A DNA stretch of 64,000 nucleotides from a virus (Duplodnaviria; Caudoviricetes), in IMG/VR virus record IMGVR_UViG_3300012347_000104, positions 1 to 64,000 of that record. One strand, given 5' to 3'. Both the position numbers and the translations under genes were made by a program. The notes beneath the pieces are model-generated. The model saw nothing but the letters and a program-made list of their open reading frames with translations. It was not told the DNA's origin and ran no database searches. This document shows positions 1 through 53,172 of this stretch, in pieces (positions within the stretch are counted from its first letter, which is position 1; every line of letters begins with the position of its first letter).

Positions 1-590
1 CCTAATAATCTTGATTGTGCTTTTTTCATTAAATCTGCTACCTGTTCATCGCTTAATGCTGAGGGCATATCTCTACGCCATACTTGATATTTTTCTTCGT
101 CTGACGCATTTGGGTCTAATAGAGCTTGGCGCATTGGTGTTGCGCGAGGACCTTCTTCGCCTCTAAACTTACTACGTGTTTCTTGTCTTGAGATTACTCT
201 TAATTTAGAGAAACCGAAACTTTGATACACGGGAACACCTTCTTTATTTGGCTTCTCTAAGTACTTGAATGATTCTTTTTGATCCGCGCCTACTACTAAT
301 ACAACACCCTGATAACCTAACGTTGCTAGTTCTTGCAATGCTTGATTCAAGTTACCTTCTGCTGTAAAGATGTTTTTGTGTTGAGGGAAAACTGTTTGAT
401 AGATTGCTAGTTTTTCTTCAGGAAACAATGGATCATCTTTTCCAACTGTCTTACTTACAAAGAAGTATGGGTCAGCTTTCATATCTGCGGCTTGTGTAAT
501 CACTGCATCAGCTAGGTACATGTGCCCACTGTGACCCATGCCTCTTCCCCAACCAACTACTGCTAACTTGTTTTTTCCTGTGCGTTTCAT
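1..590 (-). CDS. HxGH (HUP/cytidyltransferase-like, class I) nucleotidyltransferase; runs off the window edge
   Basis: Manual translation from ATG at 590: MKRTGKNKLAVVGWGRGMGHSGHMYLADAV...VVLVVGADQ. HSGH = HxGH motif, plus VGxD. ATGA overlap with the stop of 587..1741; no stop before position 1. Not in the supplied ORF track. Confidence 0.7.
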   Translation of the reverse strand, partial: MKRTGKNKLAVVGWGRGMGHSGHMYLADAVITQAADMKADPYFFVSKTVGKDDPLFPEEKLAIYQTVFPQHKNIFTAEGNLNQALQELATLGYQGVVLVVGADQKESFKYLEKPNKEGVPVYQSFGFSKLRVISRQETRSKFRGEEGPRATPMRQALLDPNASDEEKYQVWRRDMPSALSDEQVADLMKKAQSRLL

Positions 591-1741
591 AATTTTTTAG
601 GTTTCCAATTCATTTGGTCAATTAATTTTAAGAATTGTCCCGGTACATCATATTGTAAGTTAATCTCAGGGTGTGCTTGTACGTAACCTTCAGGGTTAGT
701 TTGCATGATACCACCATGAAGACCTAAACTTAGTGATTTAATGATTTGCATCTTCTCATTAGAGATTGCTTCAATCGCACCTAATGTTGCCTTCAACCCC
801 TTAGGATCGCTCAATAATAGTTGCGCTTTACCGGGACTTAAATTTGCGTTTGCCCAAGCCGGGAAATCTTTTAATAGCCCACTTGTGCGTAAATGCTTGT
901 TCAAGTATGTGTATAGCTCGGCGCCTGGATTACTAAGTCCCTGCTTAGGTGCCAAGTAATTGTCAATTAACTGTGCGTTTGTTTTAATAAACTGCTCTAG
1001 CTTATCTAGACCAGATGTGTTTACACCGGGCATTTCTTCTACATAGGTAGTGCCCTGAACGATTACTTCGGGTGTAGACAACTTACCTGTATTTGCTAAA
1101 CGACCTTCATCTGAGCTACCGAGTTTGTCAAAGAAACCTGTAGCTGCGACCATCATCTTTGCTTTGCTTATTTGTTTACCTAACTTACTATCAACCGGTA
1201 CATGGAATGCAGTGATGTTTGGTTTAAAGTCGTATGTCTTTGTGCGAGGATTCAATTGAGGCATAGCACTCTGACCGTCGGGTTTAGTTCCGGGATAGAA
1301 TAAGATGCCGCCTTCTAAGTATCCTTTTTGCGGACTAACTTTCTCAAAGTATGACCATAGACTAGCAACGTTCTTAGCAAACATTTGACGACCTTCGTCG
1401 GCGCCACCACCTGTACCTAGAATAAATTTTACTACATCTTCAGGACTATTAGGTAATGTCGGTGCACCAGTCTTAGTCTGAGTAGCACCACGTGCTAGAT
1501 ATGCCCAAGCATTTTTAGGAATCATTCTAAAGACTCCCTTTTCATCACGACCCCAATATACTACTGGCATGCCGTCCCACTTTAATTCAATTGAATCATA
1601 GTTATCAACCATATGACGCATACGTTCGACAACGTGCATAGCACCGTGGCTACCATTGGCAAGTACCATATCTTCGATATGTTGATACTTGCGACCTACT
1701 GTGGGTGCCGCTGCTTCGAATAGTATGTCGGATAATTTCAT
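587..1741 (-). CDS. ATP-dependent ligase/capping-enzyme superfamily nucleotidyltransferase (RNA-ligase-like, no OB domain evident)
   Basis: Motif I KWDG; motif III-like YLEGGILF; motif IV EGYV; motif V-like KLID near the C-terminus. Confidence 0.6.
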   Translation of the reverse strand: MKLSDILFEAAAPTVGRKYQHIEDMVLANGSHGAMHVVERMRHMVDNYDSIELKWDGMPVVYWGRDEKGVFRMIPKNAWAYLARGATQTKTGAPTLPNSPEDVVKFILGTGGGADEGRQMFAKNVASLWSYFEKVSPQKGYLEGGILFYPGTKPDGQSAMPQLNPRTKTYDFKPNITAFHVPVDSKLGKQISKAKMMVAATGFFDKLGSSDEGRLANTGKLSTPEVIVQGTTYVEEMPGVNTSGLDKLEQFIKTNAQLIDNYLAPKQGLSNPGAELYTYLNKHLRTSGLLKDFPAWANANLSPGKAQLLLSDPKGLKATLGAIEAISNEKMQIIKSLSLGLHGGIMQTNPEGYVQAHPEINLQYDVPGQFLKLIDQMNWKPKKL

Positions 1742-2496
1742 TTTAAGATAGTTAACATGTTTTTAAACCACTCATTAACTTGAGGGGTCGCTGCCTGCCA
1801 ACTACGGCCTGCTTTTGCTGCATTGAATATTTCATTTCTACGAGCTTCGTCTGGGATGCTTGCTAGAATAGATTCAACACTTCCTAAACTTTTTGCAGTT
1901 GCGTTATTACCTAACAACAACTTAGCAATTTCATCTAAGTCAGTTGATAGTAATTCAGCTTTCTTGCCTGCGGCATCTCTTGCATATAAACCTTCATCAG
2001 GACTCCACAGCATACGTTGTGATGTTGCAAGAGTATTCATCATCATTTGCTTGTTAACGCCTTTGTAGGGAGAGCCTTGTGGAATTTCATGTCTGTGATA
2101 TTCTGCAACTTTGGCAGCGTTAGGTACAACCTTGATATCTACTTGATAGAACTTTCCACCTAATGGAATTTTAGAGTGAACTGTGACACCTGCTTGGTAA
2201 GTATCAACACCTTGCTTCTTTAAGAAGTCAGCAAGGCTTTTACGTGCAACTTTAGGATCATCTGTTTTAAAGGCTGCAAGTAATACTCGCATATCTGCTA
2301 ATACATCTAAGTCACCGGACTTAATGACTTCACCAGATTGTGTTCTTCTAGGACTGTATCCGGAACCAATAACAAACAAACGTAAGCCAGTATCAGCTAA
2401 GTATTTTTCAGTTTGTTGAACTAATGGCTTTACGACCACTGTTGGGTCTAAATCACTAGTGTCTGGCCAGATATTTCCACCTTCGAACAAATTCAT
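1738..2496 (-). CDS. Pol-beta superfamily (minimal) nucleotidyltransferase
   Basis: VIGSG-x13-GDLDVL (hGS..DxD signature) and a later QVD third acidic residue. Confidence 0.65.
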   Translation of the reverse strand: MNLFEGGNIWPDTSDLDPTVVVKPLVQQTEKYLADTGLRLFVIGSGYSPRRTQSGEVIKSGDLDVLADMRVLLAAFKTDDPKVARKSLADFLKKQGVDTYQAGVTVHSKIPLGGKFYQVDIKVVPNAAKVAEYHRHEIPQGSPYKGVNKQMMMNTLATSQRMLWSPDEGLYARDAAGKKAELLSTDLDEIAKLLLGNNATAKSLGSVESILASIPDEARRNEIFNAAKAGRSWQAATPQVNEWFKNMLTILK

Positions 2497-2497
2497 T

Positions 2498-2857
2498 TTA
2501 GTAACTCACTTTAAAGTTTTGAATAACGCCTTGAGTAAAGCCAGTGACTCTAGCTCTCAACCAAACAAAGTTACCATTGATGTTTTGAAAACTAGATGTT
2601 GTAGTGTTATTGAAAGCGAAGGTAGCGATATTTACCCAATCGCCGGTTACTAAGTCACTTGGTTCATCTAACAATGATGCTTGCAACGTGACTGTACCTG
2701 TAACACTAGTTACATTCCATGACAAGGTTTGTAGGTCTTTGTTTCCTAGATAAAAACTTGCTGCAGGCTGTCTAGTACCAGTGTATATACCATTAACAAC
2801 TCCTTGAGCGTTAAATGATACTTGTGGAAGCAAGATTAGGGTAGTTGCTTGTGCCAT
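2498..2857 (-). CDS. small beta-rich putative virion protein
   Basis: 119 aa, alternating beta-strand pattern, ends WLRARV..Y; late-type context. Confidence 0.4.
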   Translation of the reverse strand: MAQATTLILLPQVSFNAQGVVNGIYTGTRQPAASFYLGNKDLQTLSWNVTSVTGTVTLQASLLDEPSDLVTGDWVNIATFAFNNTTTSSFQNINGNFVWLRARVTGFTQGVIQNFKVSY

Positions 2858-3024
2858 TATGCTCTCACCACTTCAACAACAACTGCGTCACCGACTAATT
2901 CTTGTGCTACTTGCTCAAGTGCTTGTTGAATGTCAGAACCAGCGATCCCAGAAACTTCTGATTCGCTGTCCTTGACGATTTTACTGAATTTAATGACGAT
3001 AACGTCCTCTACAATCTTTGCCAT
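2857..3024 (-). CDS. 55 aa hypothetical protein (MAKIVEDVIVIKFSK...VVEVVRA)
   Basis: Manual translation; GGAG upstream, late motif at 3046-3053, TAATG overlap with next gene; below the ORF-track cutoff. Confidence 0.7.
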   Translation of the reverse strand: MAKIVEDVIVIKFSKIVKDSESEVSGIAGSDIQQALEQVAQELVGDAVVVEVVRA

Positions 3025-3057: not shown

Positions 3058-3783
3058 CTAGACTATATCAGGTCGTTTCTCTAATTTGTACTTTTTACCC
3101 AAGAATTCACCGTACATTAGAGCTAGATAACTCAGATAACTCTCGTCATCATAGTCGATAAAGTGTCCCGAGCTTAGCCAATTATGCCAGTACATCCAAC
3201 CTTGTGTCTTGTTAGATGTTAACCAGTATGATAAGCCTGGACTTGGTCTAAGTTGCTTGTTGGTTTTTAAGATATTGCTAAACTTTTCGCGGAAGTCGTC
3301 CGGAGATTTCTTGCTTCTAAGATAGACACGGTACTTGTGTTTGGGTTCGTTGACAAAGGTTTTAACACCCACATAACCTAAACTCTGAACCTCTGTATAG
3401 TCTACTGTCGCATTAGCATGACCGTCAAATGCTGCATGTAGTGCTTGCAAATCGTTGCTAAAGATAGCCGCAGTATTGTGTTCCATTCGAACTGTAACTG
3501 ACTTATCTTTCTTATGGTCATCTCGGAACTGCAAGATTACTTTGATAGCAGGTAAGTTTTGCTTAACAATATCAACTTCGTCTTTAGCAATTCTGCCCCA
3601 GAGTTTGTTATTGCTCAATCGTTCTTCAAATTCTGCAGGGCTATAATAGTAACCTCTACGCAAGCCCTCTACCGTGAACCGAGCACGGTATTGGTACTTG
3701 TTGTAGTATAGTTCGTCTCGGTAGTCGAATAAATCGACACCGGGAGTGTTAGTTGCCGACTTTAATAATGCCATCTTCACCAA
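3058..3783 (-). CDS. hypothetical protein downstream of clpA (start may be ATG at 3774)
   Basis: Intact 241 aa ORF overlapping the clpA end. Confidence 0.6.
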   Translation of the reverse strand: MVKMALLKSATNTPGVDLFDYRDELYYNKYQYRARFTVEGLRRGYYYSPAEFEERLSNNKLWGRIAKDEVDIVKQNLPAIKVILQFRDDHKKDKSVTVRMEHNTAAIFSNDLQALHAAFDGHANATVDYTEVQSLGYVGVKTFVNEPKHKYRVYLRSKKSPDDFREKFSNILKTNKQLRPSPGLSYWLTSNKTQGWMYWHNWLSSGHFIDYDDESYLSYLALMYGEFLGKKYKLEKRPDIV

Positions 3784-6025
3784 TTTCCGCTGATAGTTTT
3801 TGAACTACATCAAAGATGAATTCATCATTCAATCCAATATGAATGTTGATAGTAGCTCCCTTGATTCTTTCGAACAAGATTTTCTTAGACAAGGGAACAC
3901 GAATCAATTCATCAATCTTACGTGCAAGAGGACGTGCTCCCATTTTCTTATCATAGCCTTTGTCTGCAAGCAATTCAATTACTGGCTCTGACATATTGAG
4001 TGTAATGTCATGTGTGTCCAATAGCGATTTCTTCAAATCACTAGTAAACTTAACCACAATCTTCTTAATAGCAAGGGTGTCAAGTTTGTTGAACTTACAA
4101 ATCAAGTCTAAACGATTACGGAATTCAGGTTTGAAGAATTCTTTCAACGCTTTGTCATCTTCGCCAGTCTTTTCAGTTGCACCGAAGCCAATCATTGACT
4201 TTTCACTATCAGCAGAACCTAAGTTACTAGTCAAGATAACAATACAGTTTTTCGCATTGACTTCTTTACCATTTGAACCAGTTACCTTACCTTCATCAAG
4301 CAATTGCAAGAAGATGTTAAAGATATCTGGATGAGCTTTTTCAACTTCGTCAAACAACAAGATTGAGTGAGGGTTCTTGCTCAAGTCACTAATCAAACGA
4401 CCGCCACCTAAATTACCTTCACCGAAGCCAACGTAGCCGGGAGGGGCACCAAGCAATGCTGATACACTGAACTTCTCACCATATTCACTCATGTCGTACT
4501 TGACTAGAGGCATATCTAAGTTCTTAGATAACAAACGAGCCAATTCAGTCTTACCTGTACCAGTTGGGCCTAAGAACAAGAAACTTGCCATTGGCTTAGA
4601 CTGTGTACCGATACCTGCATAAGACACATAGATACGGTCGAGTACTTGGTCAACTGTTTCTGACTGACCAAACAACTTATCTTTCACGTTTGTTTCCAAC
4701 GCTTGAATACGTTCGTAGCTGTCATCTTTCAACTTGTCTGCTGGCACACCTGCGATACGCTCGACTTGGTCGAAAATCATATCTTTAGTGATGATTGCAC
4801 CTTTGTTACCAGCAACACGTTGTTTAGCACAAGCTGCATCTAACAAGTCGATTGACTTATCAGGATTTTTACGGTCATGCATGTAACGTGTAGAGCTTTC
4901 AACTGCTGCCTCGATAGCTGCCTCGGTGATTTCAACTTCATGGAAGTCGTTCAATCGTTGGCTCAGACCGTTCAAGATGCGAACTGTTGATTCTGCGCTT
5001 GGTTCATCTACTGAAACTTTATAGAAGCGGCGCATCAATGCACGATCCTTCTCAAAACTTTCGTAGAATTCTTCCCATGTTGTACTTGCGATGACTTTCA
5101 AGTTGCCTTTAGTGATAGCAGGCTTAATCATATTAGCAAAGTCTGGACCTGAGTTATTTGCTGAGCCAGCGCCTTTCATAGTGTGTGCTTCGTCAATGAA
5201 TAGGATCGCTTTCTTCTTAGCAACCAAGGCTTCCATGATAGCTTTGACTTTTTCTTCAAAGTCACCGCGATATTTACTACCTGCAACGATGTTAGCAACT
5301 TCGAGGCTATACAATTCATAGCCTTTTAAGAATTCAGGGATTTCACCAGACACAATCTTCTGGGCAATACCTTCTGCAATAGCAGTCTTACCGACACCAG
5401 GGTCACCGACCATTAACACGTTTGACTTGAATCGCTTAGCCAATACGTTAACAATGTCGTCAACTTCTTTACTACGACCAATCATTGGTTCTAGTTTATT
5501 GTCACGTGCAAGTGCAGTAAGGTTGATTGTGTATTCTTCTAGAATCTCGTCAGCTTGGTCTTCACTTAGCTTTGACAACACATCTGCGCCTTTGTACGTC
5601 TTCTGCCAATAAGGAACAAATTCAGTCTTAACAATACCGTATTTTAAGAAGAAGTAGTGAGCATGACTATTAGTTTCATGGGCAATACTCAAGTATAGGT
5701 CAATCGTAGTCACTGTCTTACGACCAGTGAACAATACTTGCGTCACGCCTCGATTCATAACACGCTCAAGTGCGTTAGTTTTGCGTGGCTGAACTTCTTG
5801 TCCTTGGTCTACTTTTGCCTTGATGGCATGTAAACTGTCAATATAGTTAGTGACATCTTTGGTCATCATCTCTGTATCGACCCCGAAGCCGTCTAAGCAC
5901 TTTTTAAACGGGGTATGTGAGATTAATGCAAGAAGCAAATGCTCTACAGTACAGTACTCATGGCTTCGGTCTTTAGAAAGAACAATAGCCTGTTCGATGA
6001 TTGCTTCAATTTCAGGTGAATGCAC
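3749..6025 (-). CDS. clpA: ClpA-like ATP-dependent Clp protease ATPase subunit
   Basis: Clp N-domain (HEYCTVEHLLLAL); two AAA+ modules GDPGVGKT/FIDE and GPTGTGKT/FDEVEKAH; IGF loop; 758 aa; GTG start with TAAGGA. Confidence 0.95.
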   Translation of the reverse strand: MHSPEIEAIIEQAIVLSKDRSHEYCTVEHLLLALISHTPFKKCLDGFGVDTEMMTKDVTNYIDSLHAIKAKVDQGQEVQPRKTNALERVMNRGVTQVLFTGRKTVTTIDLYLSIAHETNSHAHYFFLKYGIVKTEFVPYWQKTYKGADVLSKLSEDQADEILEEYTINLTALARDNKLEPMIGRSKEVDDIVNVLAKRFKSNVLMVGDPGVGKTAIAEGIAQKIVSGEIPEFLKGYELYSLEVANIVAGSKYRGDFEEKVKAIMEALVAKKKAILFIDEAHTMKGAGSANNSGPDFANMIKPAITKGNLKVIASTTWEEFYESFEKDRALMRRFYKVSVDEPSAESTVRILNGLSQRLNDFHEVEITEAAIEAAVESSTRYMHDRKNPDKSIDLLDAACAKQRVAGNKGAIITKDMIFDQVERIAGVPADKLKDDSYERIQALETNVKDKLFGQSETVDQVLDRIYVSYAGIGTQSKPMASFLFLGPTGTGKTELARLLSKNLDMPLVKYDMSEYGEKFSVSALLGAPPGYVGFGEGNLGGGRLISDLSKNPHSILLFDEVEKAHPDIFNIFLQLLDEGKVTGSNGKEVNAKNCIVILTSNLGSADSEKSMIGFGATEKTGEDDKALKEFFKPEFRNRLDLICKFNKLDTLAIKKIVVKFTSDLKKSLLDTHDITLNMSEPVIELLADKGYDKKMGARPLARKIDELIRVPLSKKILFERIKGATINIHIGLNDEFIFDVVQKLSAEIGEDGIIKVGN

Positions 6026-45631: not shown

Positions 45632-46378
45632 TTATCTTACGACTAATTTATCCACAGTGCCCTGTGAACTAACGAATTCGACACGAACATATGGATGAAA
45701 ACCTTCGATAGTGTAAACATCACCCTGTGTGCTTTCAATGTAAGAAGTTGAGCCACCTATGTTATACCAATCACCGTTAGGAACAGTGGAACCTTGGACC
45801 TGTGCAGTACCACTGTAATCTGTCAAAAATGATTGGATAGTAAGAACCGGGTTGTATTCTGTATTGATAATATCGCTGTAGAACGTTACAGTATTATTAT
45901 TTGGGGCAGTATGTGATGGTACACCCATTTCCATCGATGGCACGTGAGCTGGTAGAATACTATTAGTAATTTCAATCGTACCTCTTGCGCCTGCATCTCC
46001 TGCAACAAATACAGGTAAGTCAAATGAGTCTACTGGAATCTCTATAGAATAGACTGCTTTTTGGGCTTGCATGATATCAAGTTCAGATGATTGGACACGC
46101 AATTCCATCAAACCGGTAAGTGGTAAAACAGGATGTAATGCTGATTGAAGCAATGTTACTGTTCCGGCGCTACTGATGATTCTACAAGTGATTTCCTTAC
46201 CTGTTACGTCAATTGGTTTTTGTTCTTGATTTAAGAACTGGAACTGTATTCTATTGTCAACTCCTTTGTGAAGTTTTAGATTCTTAGCGTACACGGTTTG
46301 GTATCTCCTTGGTGATGAGCCAGTAATCAACACAACGATTTGTCTTGGGATGTAAAAATAAACTGATGTTGAGTACAC
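45632..46378 (-). CDS. putative virion structural protein
   Basis: beta-rich, ends FHPYVRVEF; GTG start with TAAGGAG; late motif upstream. Confidence 0.55.
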   Translation of the reverse strand: MYSTSVYFYIPRQIVVLITGSSPRRYQTVYAKNLKLHKGVDNRIQFQFLNQEQKPIDVTGKEITCRIISSAGTVTLLQSALHPVLPLTGLMELRVQSSELDIMQAQKAVYSIEIPVDSFDLPVFVAGDAGARGTIEITNSILPAHVPSMEMGVPSHTAPNNNTVTFYSDIINTEYNPVLTIQSFLTDYSGTAQVQGSTVPNGDWYNIGGSTSYIESTQGDVYTIEGFHPYVRVEFVSSQGTVDKLVVR

Positions 46379-46460
46379 TATATGGCTCCTTATACTCTAT
46401 TTATGACAAATAAAATAATGGGTTTTGCCCGAAGATAAATATTCCTAGACGACAAAAATA

Positions 46461-46841
46461 ATGATTCACAACGAATTCTTCCAGAAACTAACCGAAAATC
46501 ACCCGTTCATCACGGTATGTTCTTACGCAGGACAGGACTATGTGGGGATTGTCCAAAACAGGGACGATATCGTTACCACTATATACGATTACGGCTCTAT
46601 CATTGAGCATAATATGCGTGAAAGATTTTTAGAACTAGGGGACATTTGGTGGTGGGAATCCAACAGATTAGTCCCCATTAATATGTTCTTAAAGGATGAC
46701 TGGTCGATGTTCAAGCCATATCTAAGAACATTCAACAACAAGAGCCTAACAGTTATTCACGGACCTATATGTAGTATGCTTGAACTAAGCAAACGCAAGA
46801 GCAAAAGAAAATCAATTACTCTCGTCAAGAGAATGTCCTAA
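46461..46841 (+). CDS. hypothetical late protein
   Basis: 126 aa; GATAAATA at 46434-46441; convergent overlap with DnaE fragment B. Confidence 0.65.
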   Translation: MIHNEFFQKLTENHPFITVCSYAGQDYVGIVQNRDDIVTTIYDYGSIIEHNMRERFLELGDIWWWESNRLVPINMFLKDDWSMFKPYLRTFNNKSLTVIHGPICSMLELSKRKSKRKSITLVKRMS

Positions 46842-47408
46842 TCCCTCAGCAAGTAGATTCATATGCACTACGACTAGATTTGCGTAGGCAATAGCATGAC
46901 TTTTCTTAAAACTGTATCCGTCATCATACTTCTCCCACACCGACTTAGCAACATCTTTCCAAGATAATCCAATCAAGTACTTCTTTGCAGGACGAATCGC
47001 TGCAAGAAACATCGCAAGTCTGGGAATACTATCAATAGGTTCAGGCATCTTTTGCATACTGTTGTAGTGATTGCTCAAGTGAATCAACTTCTCAACAAAA
47101 GACCTATCGTTAAGTTTAGACCAATCAGGTTCTCTCATTAACTCAATTAAATGCTGTTCATCACGTACATGTGTGTAAACGTGAACATTCAACAAGTCTA
47201 ACTTAAAATAGCCACGTGCTTCTGCGTCAGTGTAGTCGATATTAGCCATATTGTTTAGTGCATCATATGGCACATCAGTGATGTGTACACCTGTTGCATG
47301 TTTACGTATAGGCGTGACATTGCGCATCGCAGCAGGAATGTGCTTGATGTGTTCTAAGATAGCATCACGACTACCAAAGTCAATGTCAATATCTGATTGA
47401 AATTTCAT
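46812..47408 (-). CDS. dnaE: DNA polymerase III alpha (DnaE)-like fragment B: catalytic aspartates and truncated fingers
   Basis: SDIDIDF, RKHATGV, GYFKLDLL, AAIRP, GYSFKKSHAIAYA = DnaE PDxDxDF, KHAxG, KxDxL, A(L)xRPG, YxFNKSHxxAY. Confidence 0.85.
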   Translation of the reverse strand: MKFQSDIDIDFGSRDAILEHIKHIPAAMRNVTPIRKHATGVHITDVPYDALNNMANIDYTDAEARGYFKLDLLNVHVYTHVRDEQHLIELMREPDWSKLNDRSFVEKLIHLSNHYNSMQKMPEPIDSIPRLAMFLAAIRPAKKYLIGLSWKDVAKSVWEKYDDGYSFKKSHAIAYANLVVVHMNLLAEGLGHSLDESN

Positions 47409-47965
47409 CGTGGCGCCATCAATCCTGCTTTAATCATTTTCATATATGCTTGTTGCACAACAATAGCTTGTCGTTCGGCATCCTCTACGGCTTTGTGACT
47501 AGTAACGTGTCCACCGTCTTTAAGTTTAACCCCTGCAACTTCATATAAAGTTCGTGTATCTCGTACCGACCAGAAAGGCCAGGGTATAGGATTAGGTTTG
47601 TCAGATACTTGTCGCCATGCATGTTCCATAACAACACAGTCAAAACTTGCACCGTTACTCCATACTGCTCTACGATTCCAACAAAACTTGTACAATTTCT
47701 CCATACAATCTGCAAATGATTCCCTGCCCCAATCGCCCATTGCTTCTTCGATGGCTTCAGGAGATTGCTCACCCCACCAGCGTAGCGTATCATCGTTGAT
47801 GGTTCTTCCATACTTGTCTGTTTGGTCTTCAATTGTCGGGCGTAGTTCTAACCGTTCAACAACACCTGAACCCTTAGGGTCAAATCTCACTGCACCAATA
47901 GTTAGAATCACACAATCAGGTGTTGTATTCAAACTCTCGATGTCAATCATAATATCATTTGCCAT
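47405..47965 (-). CDS. DEDDh 3'-5' exonuclease (Rv2179c-like)
   Basis: MIDIESL, WSNGASFD, RDTRT, HKAVEDA. Confidence 0.85.
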   Translation of the reverse strand: MANDIMIDIESLNTTPDCVILTIGAVRFDPKGSGVVERLELRPTIEDQTDKYGRTINDDTLRWWGEQSPEAIEEAMGDWGRESFADCMEKLYKFCWNRRAVWSNGASFDCVVMEHAWRQVSDKPNPIPWPFWSVRDTRTLYEVAGVKLKDGGHVTSHKAVEDAERQAIVVQQAYMKMIKAGLMAPR

Positions 47966-48164
47966 TTTTGTTACTCGTATAAGGTTGTTCTATTCTAGGT
48001 AATCCGCAATCAGCACAGTTGCATCTAGCTACTGATGTGCCCATCCATTCATTGCGCTCAATCACTTCATAACTTGTCCATCGATGCCATCCTAAACGAC
48101 ACTTCCATGATTGTATAGGTTTAAGTCCTGCGACTGTTCGCCATGTGTTCTCTGCTGTGTTCAT
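47955..48164 (-). CDS. small Cys/His protein (CRLGWHRW family)
   Basis: C..GWH.W...C.C..CG; paralogous motif in 58421..58675. Confidence 0.55.
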   Translation of the reverse strand: MNTAENTWRTVAGLKPIQSWKCRLGWHRWTSYEVIERNEWMGTSVARCNCADCGLPRIEQPYTSNKNGK

Positions 48165-48448
48165 GTCTTCCACATTTCATACATAAATTTTAACTTGTCG
48201 TCCCATATCTCAACATTGATAGTGCCAGCAGTGGTGTTCAGCATAAAGTCCCATCCTGAGCCACGGTCTCCCATGTTCGCTCGTAGCCATTTTACAATAG
48301 TTGCAGGATCTTCTTTCTTGAACCTAAAGTCATATATGTAGTATGTTCTACCACCCCAAGTAGACTTAGTATCCCTACACTCGGTGGTGTTTTTTGCCGG
48401 TAAGGGCACGTATGTGCCTGTACTTCGTCCTAATGCTGAAATTGCCAT
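48161..48448 (-). CDS. LRW-family small protein (divergent)
   Basis: W.R.N.G..G..W core; ends DDKLKFMYEMWKT. Confidence 0.6.
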   Translation of the reverse strand: MAISALGRSTGTYVPLPAKNTTECRDTKSTWGGRTYYIYDFRFKKEDPATIVKWLRANMGDRGSGWDFMLNTTAGTINVEIWDDKLKFMYEMWKT

Positions 48449-48449
48449 G

Positions 48450-48668
48450 TTATAGATAAGTTAATGAAAACCATGTTGCTAACAATTCCGTATAGAATGT
48501 GAACACAGTATGTCTATTATACTCTAAATGACCATTAATGTAATCATGTTTGGGCGTAAAGTATTCAAAATCAAAGTCAACGCCCTGCACATACCCGCGA
48601 TGGCGCAGCTCTTTAACTACGTCCAAAACTTCGCCGGATCTCCAATCAGGTACCGTAACTTTTTTCAT
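48450..48668 (-). CDS. LRW-family small protein (divergent)
   Basis: ends FTFYTELLATWFSLTYL. Confidence 0.6.
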   Translation of the reverse strand: MKKVTVPDWRSGEVLDVVKELRHRGYVQGVDFDFEYFTPKHDYINGHLEYNRHTVFTFYTELLATWFSLTYL

Positions 48669-48919
48669 TGCGGGAACATCAACAAAAAGAAAGTTGCCAT
48701 TCTTTCATCTTCTAGCGTTAGTTTCCAAACGCGGTGATGACTGGTGTATGACTCACCGTCACTCGTTTCTTTTATCACCTGCTCATTGTATTCTTTGGCA
48801 ACCCAACCCTGACCACCGATTGAGTTATGCAAGTAGTGCATACGTGGTCCGATATTCTTTGCGAGCCATTGTTCTTCTGAGCCGCGAAGGTGATGTTTAA
48901 GATTTATTGTTATTCCCAT
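48665..48919 (-). CDS. LRW-family small protein (divergent)
   Basis: WLAKNIGP core; ends LEDERMATFFLLMFPQ. Confidence 0.6.
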   Translation of the reverse strand: MGITINLKHHLRGSEEQWLAKNIGPRMHYLHNSIGGQGWVAKEYNEQVIKETSDGESYTSHHRVWKLTLEDERMATFFLLMFPQ

Positions 48920-49155
48920 CTCAATCTAAACAATGTTACGAACTCATCCTTACATAACATTATTTCTCCGAATTCAGTATTGTCTATCCAGTAGCTGTCT
49001 TCAATGTCTTCACGATACCCACTAGGTCCGAAGTTTTTCTTGCACCATTTCTTAATCTCTTTGGCGTCAACTTCTCCTTGACCCTTCCATGAGACAGTAT
49101 GGATGTTCCTTTTACTACCGTAGTAGTTTTCTTTTCTGAATGTAAACGAACTCAT
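48910..49155 (-). CDS. LRW-family small protein
   Basis: WCKKNFGP core; ends KDEFVTLFRLRWE. Confidence 0.7.
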   Translation of the reverse strand: MSSFTFRKENYYGSKRNIHTVSWKGQGEVDAKEIKKWCKKNFGPSGYREDIEDSYWIDNTEFGEIMLCKDEFVTLFRLRWE

Positions 49156-49385
49156 CCGAACCTCAACAAAAAGTTAATGTACTTTTCTTCGTCAATAATC
49201 TCAGCACCTAGTACAACTACTGCATGTCCGTGTTGTCCGAATTCAACTTTTAACCCATGCTCTTGTTCACAAAACGTATCAAAGTGCTGGTCTTCTTCAT
49301 CTAATGGAAGTGTTTCTCTCTTCCAGGTTCTGACTGCTTTTGTTATTGTTTGAATCAATTCCGGCGTTACTTCTACTGTACTCAT
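49152..49385 (-). CDS. LRW-family small protein
   Basis: ends IIDEEKYINFLLRFG. Confidence 0.65.
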   Translation of the reverse strand: MSTVEVTPELIQTITKAVRTWKRETLPLDEEDQHFDTFCEQEHGLKVEFGQHGHAVVVLGAEIIDEEKYINFLLRFG

Positions 49386-49386
49386 A

Positions 49387-49647
49387 TTATTCCCATCTTA
49401 ACACAAACCAATTACGGTCTTTCTCTGTCCTAAACCAAAACTTTGCATTGTTTACATACCATCTGCTGTTCGGCGTCCATACACCATCTTCAGGTGTAGG
49501 ACCGAATGTCTCAACACACCACTCGACCATTTTATTCCAAGTATCAACACCACCCCAATCTTGGTCTAAGTCCCATGAGGGAATAGGTTGTATAGTGTAA
49601 TATCTAGCACCATACACTCGGCCCTCTTCACATATTAAGCCTGTCAT
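49387..49647 (-). CDS. LRW-family small protein
   Basis: WCVETFGP core; ends FRTEKDRNWFVLRWE; start by ATGA overlap. Confidence 0.7.
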   Translation of the reverse strand: MTGLICEEGRVYGARYYTIQPIPSWDLDQDWGGVDTWNKMVEWCVETFGPTPEDGVWTPNSRWYVNNAKFWFRTEKDRNWFVLRWE

Positions 49648-49880
49648 ATCCAACGCCATATGAACCACTGATAGTCTTTCTCTCGTTGAAAGTAGTATGT
49701 GACCCCTTTACCCTCATGCACAATGTAGATTCTACTACGGATATTTTCTTGTAGATTATCCCATAGCCATTGCTCACGCTCTTGAACCTTCTCATCATCA
49801 ACTTCAAAGCCGTGTTCATCTCCAACAGTCTTAAAGAAAGAACTGTAGGGCCATATCTCTTTTTTAAGTACTCTACTCAT
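49644..49880 (-). CDS. LRW-family small protein
   Basis: ends FQREKDYQWFIWRWI; start by ATGA overlap. Confidence 0.7.
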   Translation of the reverse strand: MSRVLKKEIWPYSSFFKTVGDEHGFEVDDEKVQEREQWLWDNLQENIRSRIYIVHEGKGVTYYFQREKDYQWFIWRWI

Positions 49881-50182
49881 AGCCACCTCAAGCTGAACCA
49901 CTCGGCGTGTTCTTTTTTCTTAAACATATATGTAGTACCAAAGTTACTCCAAATCTTCTTTTCCACGCCTATCGTGAAATTACACCATTCTTCAATCTCA
50001 ACAGGATGCTTCATGTCTTTGAATCGTTCAAGTCTCACTACGTACCAACCGTTCATTTTCATCATGTCAACCATAATTTCATTGTCAATTTCTTCTTGGA
50101 TAATCTTTGCGTATGCTGTTGCAATTGTATCTAAGTCGTTATCTCCGGCCTTCATTGTATAGTTGGCACTAAATTGTTTCAT
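49877..50182 (-). CDS. LRW-family small protein
   Basis: EEWC core; ends FKKKEHAEWFSLRWL; start MKQFSAN by ATGA overlap. Confidence 0.7.
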   Translation of the reverse strand: MKQFSANYTMKAGDNDLDTIATAYAKIIQEEIDNEIMVDMMKMNGWYVVRLERFKDMKHPVEIEEWCNFTIGVEKKIWSNFGTTYMFKKKEHAEWFSLRWL

Positions 50183-50523
50183 GTCCATCTTAGTGTCATC
50201 CAAGTTAAAAATTCTTCGTTCACCAAAAGTCTTACCATCGCATAATGACAGCCGTCTGTTTCTTCTGCATACTTCCACATGTGCGGGGGTTGAGTAAGCA
50301 CCCATTGTTCAACGATTGGGCTAACATCAATTGCTATGCAGTTATGTGAGTATAACACAGTTTCGTTTTGATTCTCAACAATTAGGTAAGGCTTGAACCC
50401 AACCATCCCGTTTTCTACTTTAAATGGGCTAAATGGGTCACCGGGCTTAGTAAACTTTTCAGTAGCTTGTTCTTGAACCTTGCCACCGAACACCTTTAGC
50501 ATTCTGTTTATCTTTTCTAACAT
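50179..50523 (-). CDS. LRW-family small protein
   Basis: ends VNEEFLTWMTLRWT; start by TAATG overlap. Confidence 0.7.
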   Translation of the reverse strand: MLEKINRMLKVFGGKVQEQATEKFTKPGDPFSPFKVENGMVGFKPYLIVENQNETVLYSHNCIAIDVSPIVEQWVLTQPPHMWKYAEETDGCHYAMVRLLVNEEFLTWMTLRWT

Positions 50524-50705
50524 TAACTCCACCTCAACTTAAACCACATTGCATCTTTCTCGTCACTGAAAAAGTAATCTACTTTAGAATTATCAAAAGT
50601 GTTGTATCCATCCATGTGTATATCATTGCTAATATAACTCGGGCAATGTTCTTTAGCCCAATCAACTGGTGCCCATAATGGGGTGTATGGTATTGTAACT
50701 GTCAT
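50523..50705 (-). CDS. LRW-family small protein
   Basis: WAKEHCP core; ends FSDEKDAMWFKLRWS. Confidence 0.7.
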   Translation of the reverse strand: MTVTIPYTPLWAPVDWAKEHCPSYISNDIHMDGYNTFDNSKVDYFFSDEKDAMWFKLRWS

Positions 50706-50950
50706 GACCATTTCAACACAAACCAAGAAAACTTCTTTTCATCGATGACATTGTATCCAACTATCTCGTTATGATAATCTGACAACAGTACCTCTACCCC
50801 GCATTTGGTTTCTAGAAAATGTAGGTAAGCATCTTCTTTGATTTGACCAGTGATAACTTTTGCTTCTGGTGGCAACTCAATAGGCTTTTTCAGAAATTCA
50901 TTCTGCCCTTGTCTAACTACAATCTTTTTTACAAGTTCTAAATCCATCAT
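50702..50950 (-). CDS. LRW-family small protein
   Basis: ends VIDEKKFSWFVLKWS. Confidence 0.7.
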   Translation of the reverse strand: MMDLELVKKIVVRQGQNEFLKKPIELPPEAKVITGQIKEDAYLHFLETKCGVEVLLSDYHNEIVGYNVIDEKKFSWFVLKWS

Positions 50951-51162
50951 GACCACCTCAATATGAAAAATGTTCTATCTGCTTCTGAGTTAAATGCCCA
51001 ATGCTGTTCCGGGTTGTCACTAAAACTACCTTGCTTGTTCATTAACAAAGTCTTATAGTTCTGCACCATCCATGTCCAATAGGGTGTTTCAAAGTGATTG
51101 ATATGGTCACGAAAGTATGTGTTTGAGTTTAACCAGTATGGTTCTTTCTCGCAGTAAACCAT
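50947..51162 (-). CDS. LRW-family small protein
   Basis: ends FNSEADRTFFILRWS. Confidence 0.7.
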   Translation of the reverse strand: MVYCEKEPYWLNSNTYFRDHINHFETPYWTWMVQNYKTLLMNKQGSFSDNPEQHWAFNSEADRTFFILRWS

Positions 51163-51479
51163 TATCTACTCAATTCTTTTATCATGTTAAATTTACTAAT
51201 AGCATCAAGTACGGTATTCCAGGCATCAACTTCTGCTACACTCGGTAAATGGTCAGTGGAATCGTATGGATCATGAGCTGGTAGTTCTGACCAAAGACTA
51301 ACCCTAAGACCATGCGAATGGGTCGCACGTGATTCTCTCCAATCAGTATACTCGCTATCCCAATAATATACTCCGTAGCCCTCACTATCATCACCTAGTG
51401 ATGGTTTCTTATAAGCAAGGTAATAACCCTCTTTAGAAGGTCTATGGTCTTCTATATGGTACCAAATACTTGTAATCAT
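51162..51479 (-). CDS. hypothetical protein with DUF551-like W....RP...G.YL...W motif
   Basis: WYHIEDHRPSKEGYYLAY...VSLWSELP. Confidence 0.55.
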   Translation of the reverse strand: MITSIWYHIEDHRPSKEGYYLAYKKPSLGDDSEGYGVYYWDSEYTDWRESRATHSHGLRVSLWSELPAHDPYDSTDHLPSVAEVDAWNTVLDAISKFNMIKELSR

Positions 51480-51883
51480 GTCCACCTCAACAAAAACATC
51501 ATATAGTCTTGTTCATTCATAAAAGCAAAGTAAACAAAGTCAATTCCGCCGATATCATTAAAAGTGTCTTCATATACTCTATGAATGTCCATGCGATACT
51601 TGAATCTACATTTACTTTCACACCAGTCACGCATATCTTCGTAACCAAATCTAATCCCACCGGGACCATAGTCATACACTACGCTGTAAGCATAACTAGT
51701 TTTTCTATCTGCTACATAGACATGTTTATATCCACAATAGTAGTCGCTAACTCTATTAGCTTGGTAATGAACATTAGAGTCACGGCAATGCCGGTAGACT
51801 CGCCAAGAACTATAGCCACTCTTTTCTAGCTTGCGTTTGGCTTTCCAAACTCTATATCTAGCTTTTAATCTTAGTGCCATCAT
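51476..51883 (-). CDS. LRW-family protein with N-terminal extension
   Basis: DWCESKC core; ends FMNEQDYMMFLLRWT. Confidence 0.7.
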   Translation of the reverse strand: MMALRLKARYRVWKAKRKLEKSGYSSWRVYRHCRDSNVHYQANRVSDYYCGYKHVYVADRKTSYAYSVVYDYGPGGIRFGYEDMRDWCESKCRFKYRMDIHRVYEDTFNDIGGIDFVYFAFMNEQDYMMFLLRWT

Positions 51884-52137
51884 AAGGACAATATATCAAA
51901 TGCCGTAGCATACTGTACTTCAGGTTCCATGTGAAAGCCCGAGCCCCATATTACCCAAACCTTACGCTTATATGCTTTTGTCCAAAACAAAGGAGCACCT
52001 GTAATGCTTCTACGAGGCCAGATGACAAACGTTTCTTTCCATGGATAGCAATCTGCTCCATCAGTGATAATGTCTGTGCGTCCCATTTCTGCTCTATCTA
52101 AATTCCATCCTAGACTTCTAGTCCAATCAATTTTCAT
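51880..52137 (-). CDS. hypothetical Trp-rich protein
   Basis: 85 aa, ATGA-coupled both sides. Confidence 0.55.
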   Translation of the reverse strand: MKIDWTRSLGWNLDRAEMGRTDIITDGADCYPWKETFVIWPRRSITGAPLFWTKAYKRKVWVIWGSGFHMEPEVQYATAFDILSL

Positions 52138-52403
52138 ACTCTGTATGAGGCCATTGTTTTGTCTTCTAATATCTCACCTGCAAACGCATACATAAAAGCT
52201 AGATAAGCATCACGCAATTCAAAATGAATCACATCACAGTTATCTTTGCGTCTAAATGCATGTTCGATGTGCCAGCGACTGAATGAACCTTTACCGGGAT
52301 AATCTTCACACCATGTAAACATTTCATTAGTAACCATAGCTACTTTAAACTGATAGATGAATGAGGGGTTTTGATTGCCGCCGCCGCCATAGAACTTTTC
52401 CAT
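52134..52403 (-). CDS. LRW-like small protein (divergent)
   Basis: TWCEDYP core; IHFELRDAYLAFMYAF. Confidence 0.55.
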   Translation of the reverse strand: MEKFYGGGGNQNPSFIYQFKVAMVTNEMFTWCEDYPGKGSFSRWHIEHAFRRKDNCDVIHFELRDAYLAFMYAFAGEILEDKTMASYRV

Positions 52404-52405
52404 AG

Positions 52406-52843
52406 TTATCTCTGTAATATTGCCCACATGTCAAGTTTGTGTTTCATGTCTTCTGCTTTTCTTTCAGCGGTTTGACGGTCTTTGATTGCTTGGTCTTTAA
52501 GATACTCGGCTGTTGTGATTTCTTGTTTCAATTCAGCAAATACATCCATGATAGTTCTTGCTTGTAGGTTCTTAATTTCTTTCTGGTCTTGCGCTGACAT
52601 AAAATGCAAGTGCTCAATCTCACCTTCAAGATGACTGATATACTGTCCGGGATGGTAATCACACCCGTTCACTATGCTACGAAAATTACAGAATGTATCA
52701 TCCATACCTGCATACTCTAAGTCATCGATGATTGCACCTTTAGTGCGTTGCATGATTGTAGCAAGACGAACTCGCACAGGGTCCTCATCATAACGAATGA
52801 TGTGGTCGATAAGTTCATTATCTGTTAAGTGATTCAAATTCAT
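52406..52843 (-). CDS. hypothetical coiled-coil protein
   Basis: start MNLNHL 6 nt after GGAG. Confidence 0.6.
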   Translation of the reverse strand: MNLNHLTDNELIDHIIRYDEDPVRVRLATIMQRTKGAIIDDLEYAGMDDTFCNFRSIVNGCDYHPGQYISHLEGEIEHLHFMSAQDQKEIKNLQARTIMDVFAELKQEITTAEYLKDQAIKDRQTAERKAEDMKHKLDMWAILQR

Positions 52844-52845
52844 TT

Positions 52846-53172
52846 TTAGCTCCATCGTAACATAAACCATTCGTAATCTTTGCTATCTCTAAAGAAAATC
52901 TGGTCTTCATAAGTGTGTACCCAACGTGACCATGCATCGGGGAATCTAGGCTGAGGTCCGAAGTTGTCAGTACACCATTCTTGTACCTCATTGTATTTTC
53001 TATGGTCAAAATTTGCTTTGAACCAGTTAGCACGACTGAATTGATATTTAGGTTTCATAATCTTTGGTATGTAAGGTTCATAGTAGAAACCAAGTGTACA
53101 TAGTTGTTTTTGTGCAGTCATCATTATCTCTTTGCACAAGTTTTCTTGGTAGGGGTGAAGTTTGTAATTCAT
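52846..53172 (-). CDS. LRW-family protein
   Basis: EWCTDNFGP core; ends FRDSKDYEWFMLRWS. Confidence 0.7.
   Translation of the reverse strand: MNYKLHPYQENLCKEIMMTAQKQLCTLGFYYEPYIPKIMKPKYQFSRANWFKANFDHRKYNEVQEWCTDNFGPQPRFPDAWSRWVHTYEDQIFFRDSKDYEWFMLRWS

Follow-up and report, generated by a model that had tools for sequence, protein, structure and literature searches.

Introduction

African swine fever virus (ASFV) packages its family X DNA polymerase (Pol X) and its ligase in the virion, and bacterial LigD brings together polymerase, ligase and phosphoesterase domains that occur fused or split and in variable order. Phages are also known to reconstitute NAD+ by a pathway that consists of Nampt plus Nmnat, and the T4 internal protein IPIII is made with the leader MKTYQEFIAE. 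The T4 prohead protease gp21 cleaves after L/I-x-E (PMC9026906), and in IPIII the first 10 residues are enough to direct a protein to the head (PMC9026906; PMC3012670). Here we describe three adjacent genes, A, B and C, at the beginning of IMG/VR virus record IMGVR_UViG_3300012347_000104 (Duplodnaviria; Caudoviricetes). The stretch analyzed, hereafter the window, covers the first 64 kb of a contig that measures 72.5 kb and is rated as approximately 21% complete, so the phage genome is probably about 345 kb in length. The three genes appear to form one conserved enzyme module in a clade of T4-related giant phages, in which A is predicted to be a minimal family-X-type polymerase, B a lysine-adenylyltransferase-type polynucleotide ligase, and C a HIGH-motif adenylyltransferase resembling nicotinamide mononucleotide (NMN) adenylyltransferase (NMNAT), usually with further domains, most often an HD_4 phosphohydrolase. 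We tentatively read A, B and C as a virion-delivered gap-filling and nick-sealing kit, to which we give a little less than an even chance. We know of no phage that ejects a polymerase and a ligase with its DNA.

The ASFV pair shares with this locus a minimal palm-plus-thumb Pol X lacking the 8-kDa domain, a ligase partner and a large DNA virus as carrier. It differs in that A has no detectable sequence similarity to ASFV Pol X and has an extra C-terminal helical tail, B is not of the DNA_ligase_A type and shows no obvious OB domain, and the phage unit includes a third, HIGH-type enzyme. LigD is likewise a three-activity end-repair unit whose parts are separate genes or fusions in different genomes, but all three folds differ: a primase-polymerase rather than Pol X, a ligase that is not DUF6267, and a phosphoesterase in place of a HIGH nucleotidyltransferase. 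The parts of the phage unit belong to known superfamilies. What we could not find described is the fixed and often fused trio, DUF6267 as a ligase, the phage Pol X-like family, or leaders on a polymerase and a ligase. A literature search returned nothing relevant on a jumbo phage family X polymerase with a ligase, and the passages searched in the paper on polyvalent proteins (PMC5512222) do not describe the trio.

Results

Genes A, B and C are linked in related phages and frequently fused

A sequence-only reading of this DNA had reported three consecutive minus-strand open reading frames (ORFs) joined by ATGA overlaps, had assigned them to three unrelated nucleotidyltransferase folds, and had proposed that they act as one module. 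The three ORFs, their strand and both overlaps are as claimed (Table 1), and every motif it quoted was confirmed: A has IGSG...GDLDVL, B has KWDG, EGYV and KLID, and C has GMGHSGH. ATGA overlaps are common in this extremely packed window, where they join 16 of the 87 adjacent minus-strand ORF pairs and other overlaps join 14 more, so the coupling of A, B and C is not special by itself.

The argument for a single unit comes from relatives. Two scans of viral contigs yielded approximately 145 loci. The order Clp ... A-B-C was kept throughout these loci, with A down to 28% identity. All three genes were present in 116 loci, some of which are overlapping pieces of one contig, and among these they were separate in 56, with B and C fused in 27, A and B fused in 19, and all three fused in 14. 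An 889-residue A-B-C ORF in locus L118 and a 1003-residue B-C-deaminase-HD ORF in L022 were verified. Two very distant relatives, P0232 and P0262 (approximately 28% identity), were also A-B-C fusions, with hhalign values of 98.6-98.9% for the A part. The conserved order and the frequent fusions indicate that A, B and C are one unit, and the proposal of one module is strongly supported by this synteny, the genes being linked in related phages. Neither megablast of the region nor tblastn with A matched any phage record, and all three genes occurred together in no cultured phage of the phage-record collection searched.

Protein A is predicted to be a minimal Pol X-like enzyme

A had been called a Pol-beta nucleotidyltransferase, a fold linked to CCA or oligonucleotide addition. 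This assignment is borne out by an AlphaFold2 (AF2) model (predicted local distance difference test score [pLDDT], 90.6; predicted template modeling score, 0.84) and by fold searches, which narrow it to the family X polymerases. Family X DNA polymerases came first when the model was compared with the PDB using Foldseek (Pol lambda, E 2e-7; also Pol beta), and VIA gave Z scores of 11.5 for Pol beta, 10.9 for Pol lambda and for ASFV Pol X, 10.7 for Thermus Pol X and for TdT, and 9.0 for Pol mu. The VIA alignments to family X enzymes covered 161-184 residues (for ASFV Pol X, 161 residues with a root mean square deviation of 3.2), while other nucleotidyltransferases, namely terminal uridylyltransferases (TUTases), CD-NTases, poly(A) polymerases and CCA-adding enzymes, reached Z scores of 6-8.8 over approximately 100 residues. 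The match is to family X, across both palm and thumb, and not to CCA-adding or oligonucleotide-adding enzymes; on this model A is not of the CCA type.

The predicted catalytic set consists of G44-S45, D62 (2311-2313), D64 (2305-2307) and D120 (2137-2139), a G[GS]...DxD...D pattern that reads as the Pol beta superfamily signature. In an alignment of 35 homologues with 29-93% identity, the invariant residues were E5-G6-G7-N8, G44-S45, D62, D64, H107, Q118-D120 and R173. The structural alignments to Pol beta begin at approximately its residue 100, and the 8-kDa dRP-lyase/HhH domain is absent from the 252 residues of A. A can belong to family X without it, since ASFV Pol X does not have the domain either. 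Residues 208-252, approximately, form an extra C-terminal helical tail. The model therefore describes A as a minimal palm-plus-thumb Pol X-like enzyme with a helical tail.

Sequence comparison gave little for this protein. A had no Pfam or PHROG family match, and only 3 of its 35 homologues matched NTP_transf_2, weakly (best E 0.015). Sequence and profile searches against PDB chains returned nothing meaningful for A, for B or for C. Among predicted viral structures (BFVD), the neighbors of A were uncharacterized phage proteins and giant-virus family X polymerases. A would define a branch of Pol X-like polymerases in phages that has escaped detection by sequence profiles.

Agrobacterium phage Atu_ph07 was rejected as a lead, having only a marginal A-like match (E 0.0099) and no B. 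Its record does contain, near primase/helicase genes (L155, record positions 45660-53137), nine hypothetical genes in a row that share one orientation and have approximately 250-360 codons; they include the marginal A-like match and a BFVD structural neighbor of A. The nine genes may be paralogues that form an array of Pol beta-fold proteins.

DUF6267 protein B is predicted to have a polynucleotide-ligase fold

B matches Pfam DUF6267 with 45.5 bits against a cut-off of 27, and only in its N-terminal stretch. Near-full-length matches to this family were obtained for the relative L118 and for S-CAM1 gp183 (437 bits); typical members are proteins of T4-like cyanophages, and a literature search found nothing relevant on DUF6267. 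A search of 1.8 billion representatives recovered 329 relatives of B, and we aligned 71 of them, down to 23% identity. H21, K54, D56, G57, G64, K330, E351, G352 and K372 were invariant in the 71 sequences, and W55 was conserved in at least 90%. These residues supply a motif I, K54-W-D56-G57 (K54 at 1580-1582), a motif IV, E351-G352, and a motif V, K372. There is also an invariant N-terminal QH-x-ED motif. In the AF2 model (pLDDT 92.6), motifs IV and V are held by strands 352-355 and 370-374 and are preceded by a helical insert of approximately 100 residues (about 243-338). No obvious OB barrel was seen in an overview of the model.

The top 24 rows of the VIA comparison were all RNA or DNA ligases, with Z scores of 7.2-4.9 and 145-200 residues aligned: NgrRnl scored 7.2, REL1 6.8, Trl1 6.2, T4 Rnl2 and Rnl1 5.9, and T4 DNA ligase 5.8. 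Ligases also dominated the Foldseek list, but with E values of 0.09 or higher. The Z scores are moderate, but combined with the invariance of the catalytic residues they assign B to the superfamily of covalent nucleotidyltransferases, and from the model we describe it as a predicted covalent nucleotidyltransferase with a polynucleotide-ligase fold, nearest to RNA-ligase-like forms. The ligase/capping-type adenylyltransferase fold that had been proposed for B thus agrees with the AF2 model, the fold search and the invariance of K54, E351, G352 and K372. T4 Rnl1 and Rnl2, NgrRnl and REL1 share with B the nucleotidyltransferase fold, the motif I lysine and the presence of helical accessory parts; they lack an OB domain, and none is obvious in the model of B. 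They differ from it in that the Z scores are only 5.9-7.2 and there is no sequence match, and B has the helical insert and the QH-x-ED motif. On this assignment DUF6267, a widespread phage family without assigned function, would now stand in the ligase superfamily with its catalytic lysine identified.

The nearness of B to RNA-ligase-like folds makes RNA a serious alternative substrate. The three proteins could form an RNA repair kit in which B, an RNA ligase, reseals host or phage tRNA or mRNA cut by anticodon nucleases or other RNase defenses, A rebuilds 3' ends as a terminal nucleotidyltransferase, and an HD domain attached to C heals 2',3'-cyclic phosphates. The five best-scoring structural neighbors listed above are RNA ligases, no obvious OB domain is seen in B, and its extra domain is helical as in those enzymes; in addition, many relatives have an HD domain fused to C, and related genomes already have a canonical DNA ligase. 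The differences in Z score between RNA and DNA ligases are, however, within noise, and A fits the family X DNA polymerases far better than it fits CCA-adding enzymes (Z 6.7) or TUTases. A scan of long relatives, ten of them containing C and nine containing B, also revealed no polynucleotide kinase and no 2H/CPD domain, and the HD domain belongs to the HD_4 (RelA/SpoT hydrolase) type. We regard RNA repair as unlikely, though with a share of the probability that is not trivial.

Protein C has the motifs of an HxGH nucleotidyltransferase

In C, the HxGH motif is formed by H20-S-G22-H23 (H20 at 531-533, H23 at 522-524) and the second motif reads RATPMR. The conserved blocks in homologues are GWGRGMGHxGH and GPRATPMR, in which G22 and M153 are invariant and H20, H23, R149, A150, T151, P152 and R154 are conserved in at least 90%; in cyanophage forms, the second motif (ISxTxxR type) reads SGTKMR or SASKMR. 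C matches phrog_3041, annotated as "cytidyltransferase" (E 9e-21), and its ESM Atlas neighbors are CTP_transf_like phage clusters (score 0.96). The 196 residues encoded in the window have no Pfam match; the fused homologue P0232 matches PF01467 with 32.6 bits against a cut-off of 21. With NCBIfam, C homologues mostly reached NMN adenylyltransferase models below threshold (for example, 31.8 bits versus 127) over their first 60-100 residues, and the window protein matched none of the NMNAT equivalog models (NadM/NadR/NadD), although it may function as an NMNAT all the same. By sequence, then, C is an HxGH nucleotidyltransferase whose weak family matches are NMNAT-type. Of the three folds originally assigned, those of A and B are supported by predicted structures and fold searches, while that of C comes from family and motif evidence. 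The catalytic lysine, aspartate and histidine residues are invariant or at least 90% conserved among homologues of all three proteins.

C is usually longer than the part seen here. The full-length protein of a relative (L087, 95% identical) has 1000 residues and an HD_4 domain, and other relatives have an added cytidine/dCMP deaminase domain or weak matches to GNAT and ParB_N. The long C-containing proteins of L087 (6152-9154), L118 (4317-6986) and L022 (1166-4177) end in similar short acidic tails, DYIDEK, DYLPEK and DYLEEK, which are kept although the preceding domains differ between clades. The tail may be a docking or second processing signal.

Conserved N-terminal leaders point to probable packaging of A and B

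The sequence-only reading had also noted that A and B begin with sequences resembling capsid-targeting signals (Table 1). The motif itself is no guide, as 16 of the 91 window ORFs begin with a generic M..[LIV]xE, which we judged to be about chance. With no enrichment in the window, the leader argument rests on conservation among homologues, and it is this conservation that makes the two starts meaningful. E5 of A is invariant in the 35 homologues and L3 is conserved in at least 90%. In all 70 unique homologue contexts of A and all 70 of B, an [LIVM]xE immediately precedes the conserved core, compared with 7% of random 14-residue windows drawn from inside the cores. Most B homologues have a leader; many distant ones start with MRAREFLLKE, MRAFEFLVE or MKITEVILE, and others, such as the cyanophage forms, are leaderless. 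Fused proteins keep an [IV]-x-E where A joins B (for example, QINE-AAAP) and where B joins C (VVNE, VLRE, AVRE), and in most clades separate C genes start with MLLRQLFEE or MRLRELLIE. Residues 1-6 of A and 1-12 of B have pLDDT values below 50 and are thus predicted to be disordered. The related genomes G001 (83% complete) and G002 encode a Peptidase_S77, gp21-type prohead protease (E 1e-26 to 8e-29).

These leaders resemble those of the T4 internal proteins and Alt, where a short N-terminal L/I-x-E leader is likewise found on unrelated proteins, with a gp21-family protease here present in related genomes. The T4 cargo differs, consisting of restriction inhibitors and an ADP-ribosyltransferase, whereas the proteins here are predicted nucleic-acid enzymes; the leader of A has only 5 residues, and cleavage of the leaders here is putative.

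Marine relatives carry B and C homologues beside replication genes, and C homologues occur in virions

T4-like cyanophages and pelagiphage HTVC008M have no A, and their B and C homologues lie side by side, immediately after the genes for DNA polymerase, UvsX, primase-helicase and MazG. The gene that precedes DUF6267 in S-CAM1 and HTVC008M has no similarity to A; in these two phages and in S-SZBM1, an uncharacterized gene of 352-445 codons is conserved at this position. Profile matches identify gene 141 of S-SZBM1 as the B homologue (E 2e-41) and gene 140 as the C homologue (E 5e-26); gene 141 is leaderless and the product of gene 140 starts with MRFRQFIIE. Other cyanophage C homologues start with MKKFSTFISE, MKRYTNFLSE or MRFLDFIKE, and leaders of this type occur in the homologues of S-ShM2, S-CREM1 and P-TIM40.

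Liquid chromatography-mass spectrometry of CsCl-purified S-SZBM1 virions detected gp140 (2 peptides) and gp139, and gp141 is in neither the text nor the table of that paper (PMC9146016). NMNAT-like proteins have also been found in virions of S-SCSM1, S-CBWM1 and S-CREM2 (PMC9602691, PMC10665884). The contrast between gp140 and gp141 suggests, in this one case, that the leader goes with virion detection. The cyanophage NMNAT-like virion protein, also annotated as "cytidylyltransferase" (S-SZBM1 gp140, S-SCSM1 ORF91, S-CREM2 ORF154) is comparable to C in being its homologue, in adjoining a DUF6267 gene and in having a similar leader. It differs in that cyanophages have no A, their B is leaderless, and the C-terminal domain of their C is different; the clade of the window shows the converse pattern, in which C has lost the leader and A and B carry one. 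Taken together, the conserved leaders, the gp21-type protease of relatives and the cyanophage proteomes give real, if indirect, support to the virion delivery that had been proposed, and the leaderless C of the window clade does not fit it.

No DNA ligase of the PF01068 or PF01653 type was found in the complete genomes of S-CAM1 (L002), HTVC008M (L003) and S-SZBM1 (L159). The absence of a recognizable DNA ligase from three marine genomes that have DUF6267 makes DUF6267 a testable candidate for that activity, and from these sequence searches it may be the DNA ligase of these three T4-like phages. The same absence, together with the position of a leaderless B among replication genes, would also fit an explanation in which A, B and C are ordinary unpackaged cytoplasmic enzymes of replication or repair, with B a nick-sealing ligase for lagging-strand or repair synthesis, A a gap-filling polymerase and C an enzyme of nucleotide metabolism, the [LIV]xE segments being part of the enzymes. 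The window region otherwise holds replication and chaperone genes, and the T4 late promoter TATAAATA has 3 matches in the window, none of them near A-B-C and not above chance. This explanation is at odds with the leaders, which the models show as disordered, which some homologues do without and which fit the T4 capsid-targeting pattern, and with the finding of leader-bearing C homologues in virions but not of the leaderless B homologue. The jumbo relatives, moreover, already have a canonical ligase. We consider a purely cytoplasmic role improbable.

Cyanophage C-type homologues were found in 556 phage records, including those of 32 Escherichia, 11 Pseudomonas, 10 Klebsiella and 8 Erwinia phages, so cultured hosts may exist for tests of virion delivery.

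A proposed gap-filling and nick-sealing role on incoming DNA

The pairing of a Pol X-type enzyme with a ligase suggests that gaps are first filled and nicks then sealed, and arrival together with the DNA suggests that the incoming genome or early damage is the target. In the virion-delivered repair kit that we tentatively favor, A and B, and C in most other clades, would be made with short propeptides ending in [L/I/V]xE, like the T4 capsid-targeting sequences. We infer that the prohead probably takes up the proteins, that a gp21-type protease trims them, and that they leave the particle together with the DNA. A would then fill short gaps and B would seal nicks as soon as infection begins, the most likely substrate being incoming phage DNA that was environmentally damaged or nicked by host defenses, and C might provide or regenerate an adenylate cofactor, for instance NAD+. 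Should the leaders function as they do in T4, a polymerase and a ligase would enter the host along with the DNA of these phages, and immediate genome repair would join the known early counter-defenses.

Several observations weigh against this proposal. The nearest solved folds to B are RNA ligases and no obvious OB domain was seen, with a Z gap to the DNA ligases of less than 2, and a canonical ATP-dependent DNA ligase is already encoded by the relatives G001 and G003. C in the window's clade starts with MKRTG and so has no leader, and no gp21-type protease was found in the 72.5-kb contig, which is approximately 21% of the genome. The cyanophage virion detections amount to 2-3 peptides each, and the cyanophage B homologue is leaderless and lies among replication genes.

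Fusion of A, B and C may also reflect co-delivery rather than a shared pathway, by analogy with polyvalent proteins, which join disparate activities for co-injection (PMC5512222). The trio would then be an ejected effector whose domains act independently on host nucleotide pools or signals, for example with NAD+ restoration by C, alarmone hydrolysis by the HD domain and nucleotide addition by A against host targets, and the linkage would reflect packaging. The C-terminal additions to C are indeed variable and unrelated (HD_4, dCMP/cytidine deaminase, weak GNAT and ParB_N), and the authors of the S-SCSM1 study proposed that NMNAT-like proteins are particle-borne and adjust NAD levels (PMC9602691). 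The core order A-B-C is nevertheless fixed across very wide divergence while the additions vary, B and C are also linked in cyanophages where B is apparently not packaged, and no zincin processing peptidase domain was found in the proteins scanned. We hold such an effector to be about as improbable as the cytoplasmic role.

The role of C is the weakest part of the repair-kit reading; that it recycles NMN, should B use NAD+, is speculation. As in the Nampt/Nmnat pathway, a phage NMNAT-like HIGH enzyme could rebuild NAD+. That pathway differs, however, in that no Nampt partner was seen in the A-B-C module, where the partners are a polymerase and a ligase, and C homologues reach NMNAT models only far below the cut-offs. 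An elaborate version of the idea is that B takes AMP from NAD+ and C regenerates NAD+ from the released NMN and ATP, which with A would give a self-contained, virion-delivered gap-repair machine able to mend the incoming genome even in cells drained of NAD+ by defenses. DUF6267 would then be the missing DNA ligase of T4-like cyanophages and pelagiphages. We think this scheme quite improbable, more so than any explanation discussed above. The fusions and the leader pattern offer direct handles for biochemistry and virion proteomics.

Gene neighborhood and minor observations

The tight packing continues upstream of A through the genes for proteins of 119, 55 and 241 residues and a ClpA/B-like ATPase (Table 1), and this upstream gene order is shared by most related loci. 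No minus-strand terminator-like site was found between positions 1 and 5200, and scans of the window for sigma-70 promoters and for terminators gave results not above those for shuffled sequence. A-B-C is probably the distal part of a longer block, expressed with the upstream genes as one transcript.

Table 1. Features of the A-B-C locus and the genes upstream of it (positions in the window).
Feature	Position	Strand	Description	Source
Gene A	1738-2496	(-)	252 aa, Pol X-like nucleotidyltransferase (predicted)	ORF list
Gene B	587-1741	(-)	384 aa, divergent DUF6267 member
Gene C	3-590	(-)	first 196 aa only, HxGH nucleotidyltransferase domain (predicted), cut by contig end
ATGA overlap	1738-1741	(-)	stop of A / start of B
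ATGA overlap	587-590	(-)	stop of B / start of C
Leader of A	2482-2496	(-)	MNLFE, then invariant GGN; candidate prohead-protease [L/I]xE propeptide
Leader of B	1715-1741	(-)	MKLSDILFE, then AAAP; capsid-targeting-like propeptide ending LxE
119-aa gene	2498-2857	(-)	upstream of A
55-aa gene	2857-3024	(-)	upstream of A
241-aa gene	3058-3783	(-)	upstream of A
ClpA/B-like ATPase gene	3749-6025	(-)	upstream of A

The 119-aa gene is always immediately upstream of A, here one base from its start. Its product has a conserved C-terminal segment, GNFVWLRA...KVSY, with 35-73% identity in relatives, and the gene may be part of the A-B-C module.

In several relatives (L005, at 894-1737; L008, L010, L026, L096 and L097), 0.5-0.85 kb is inserted between A and B, and in L122/L123 a single open frame runs through the insert, which is possibly a mobile or homing element.

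The gene directly after C is conserved in relatives (L087, 9205-10101; L118, 7037-7900; L022, 4228-4770) and encodes 287-298 residues with a glycosyltransferase-like DAD motif and no Pfam match. It is followed in L087 (10165-11031) by a gene for a 288-residue protein with a second Pol beta-type motif, GS...DIDLH (weak PF18765). Counterparts of these L087 genes would fall beyond the contig end in the window.

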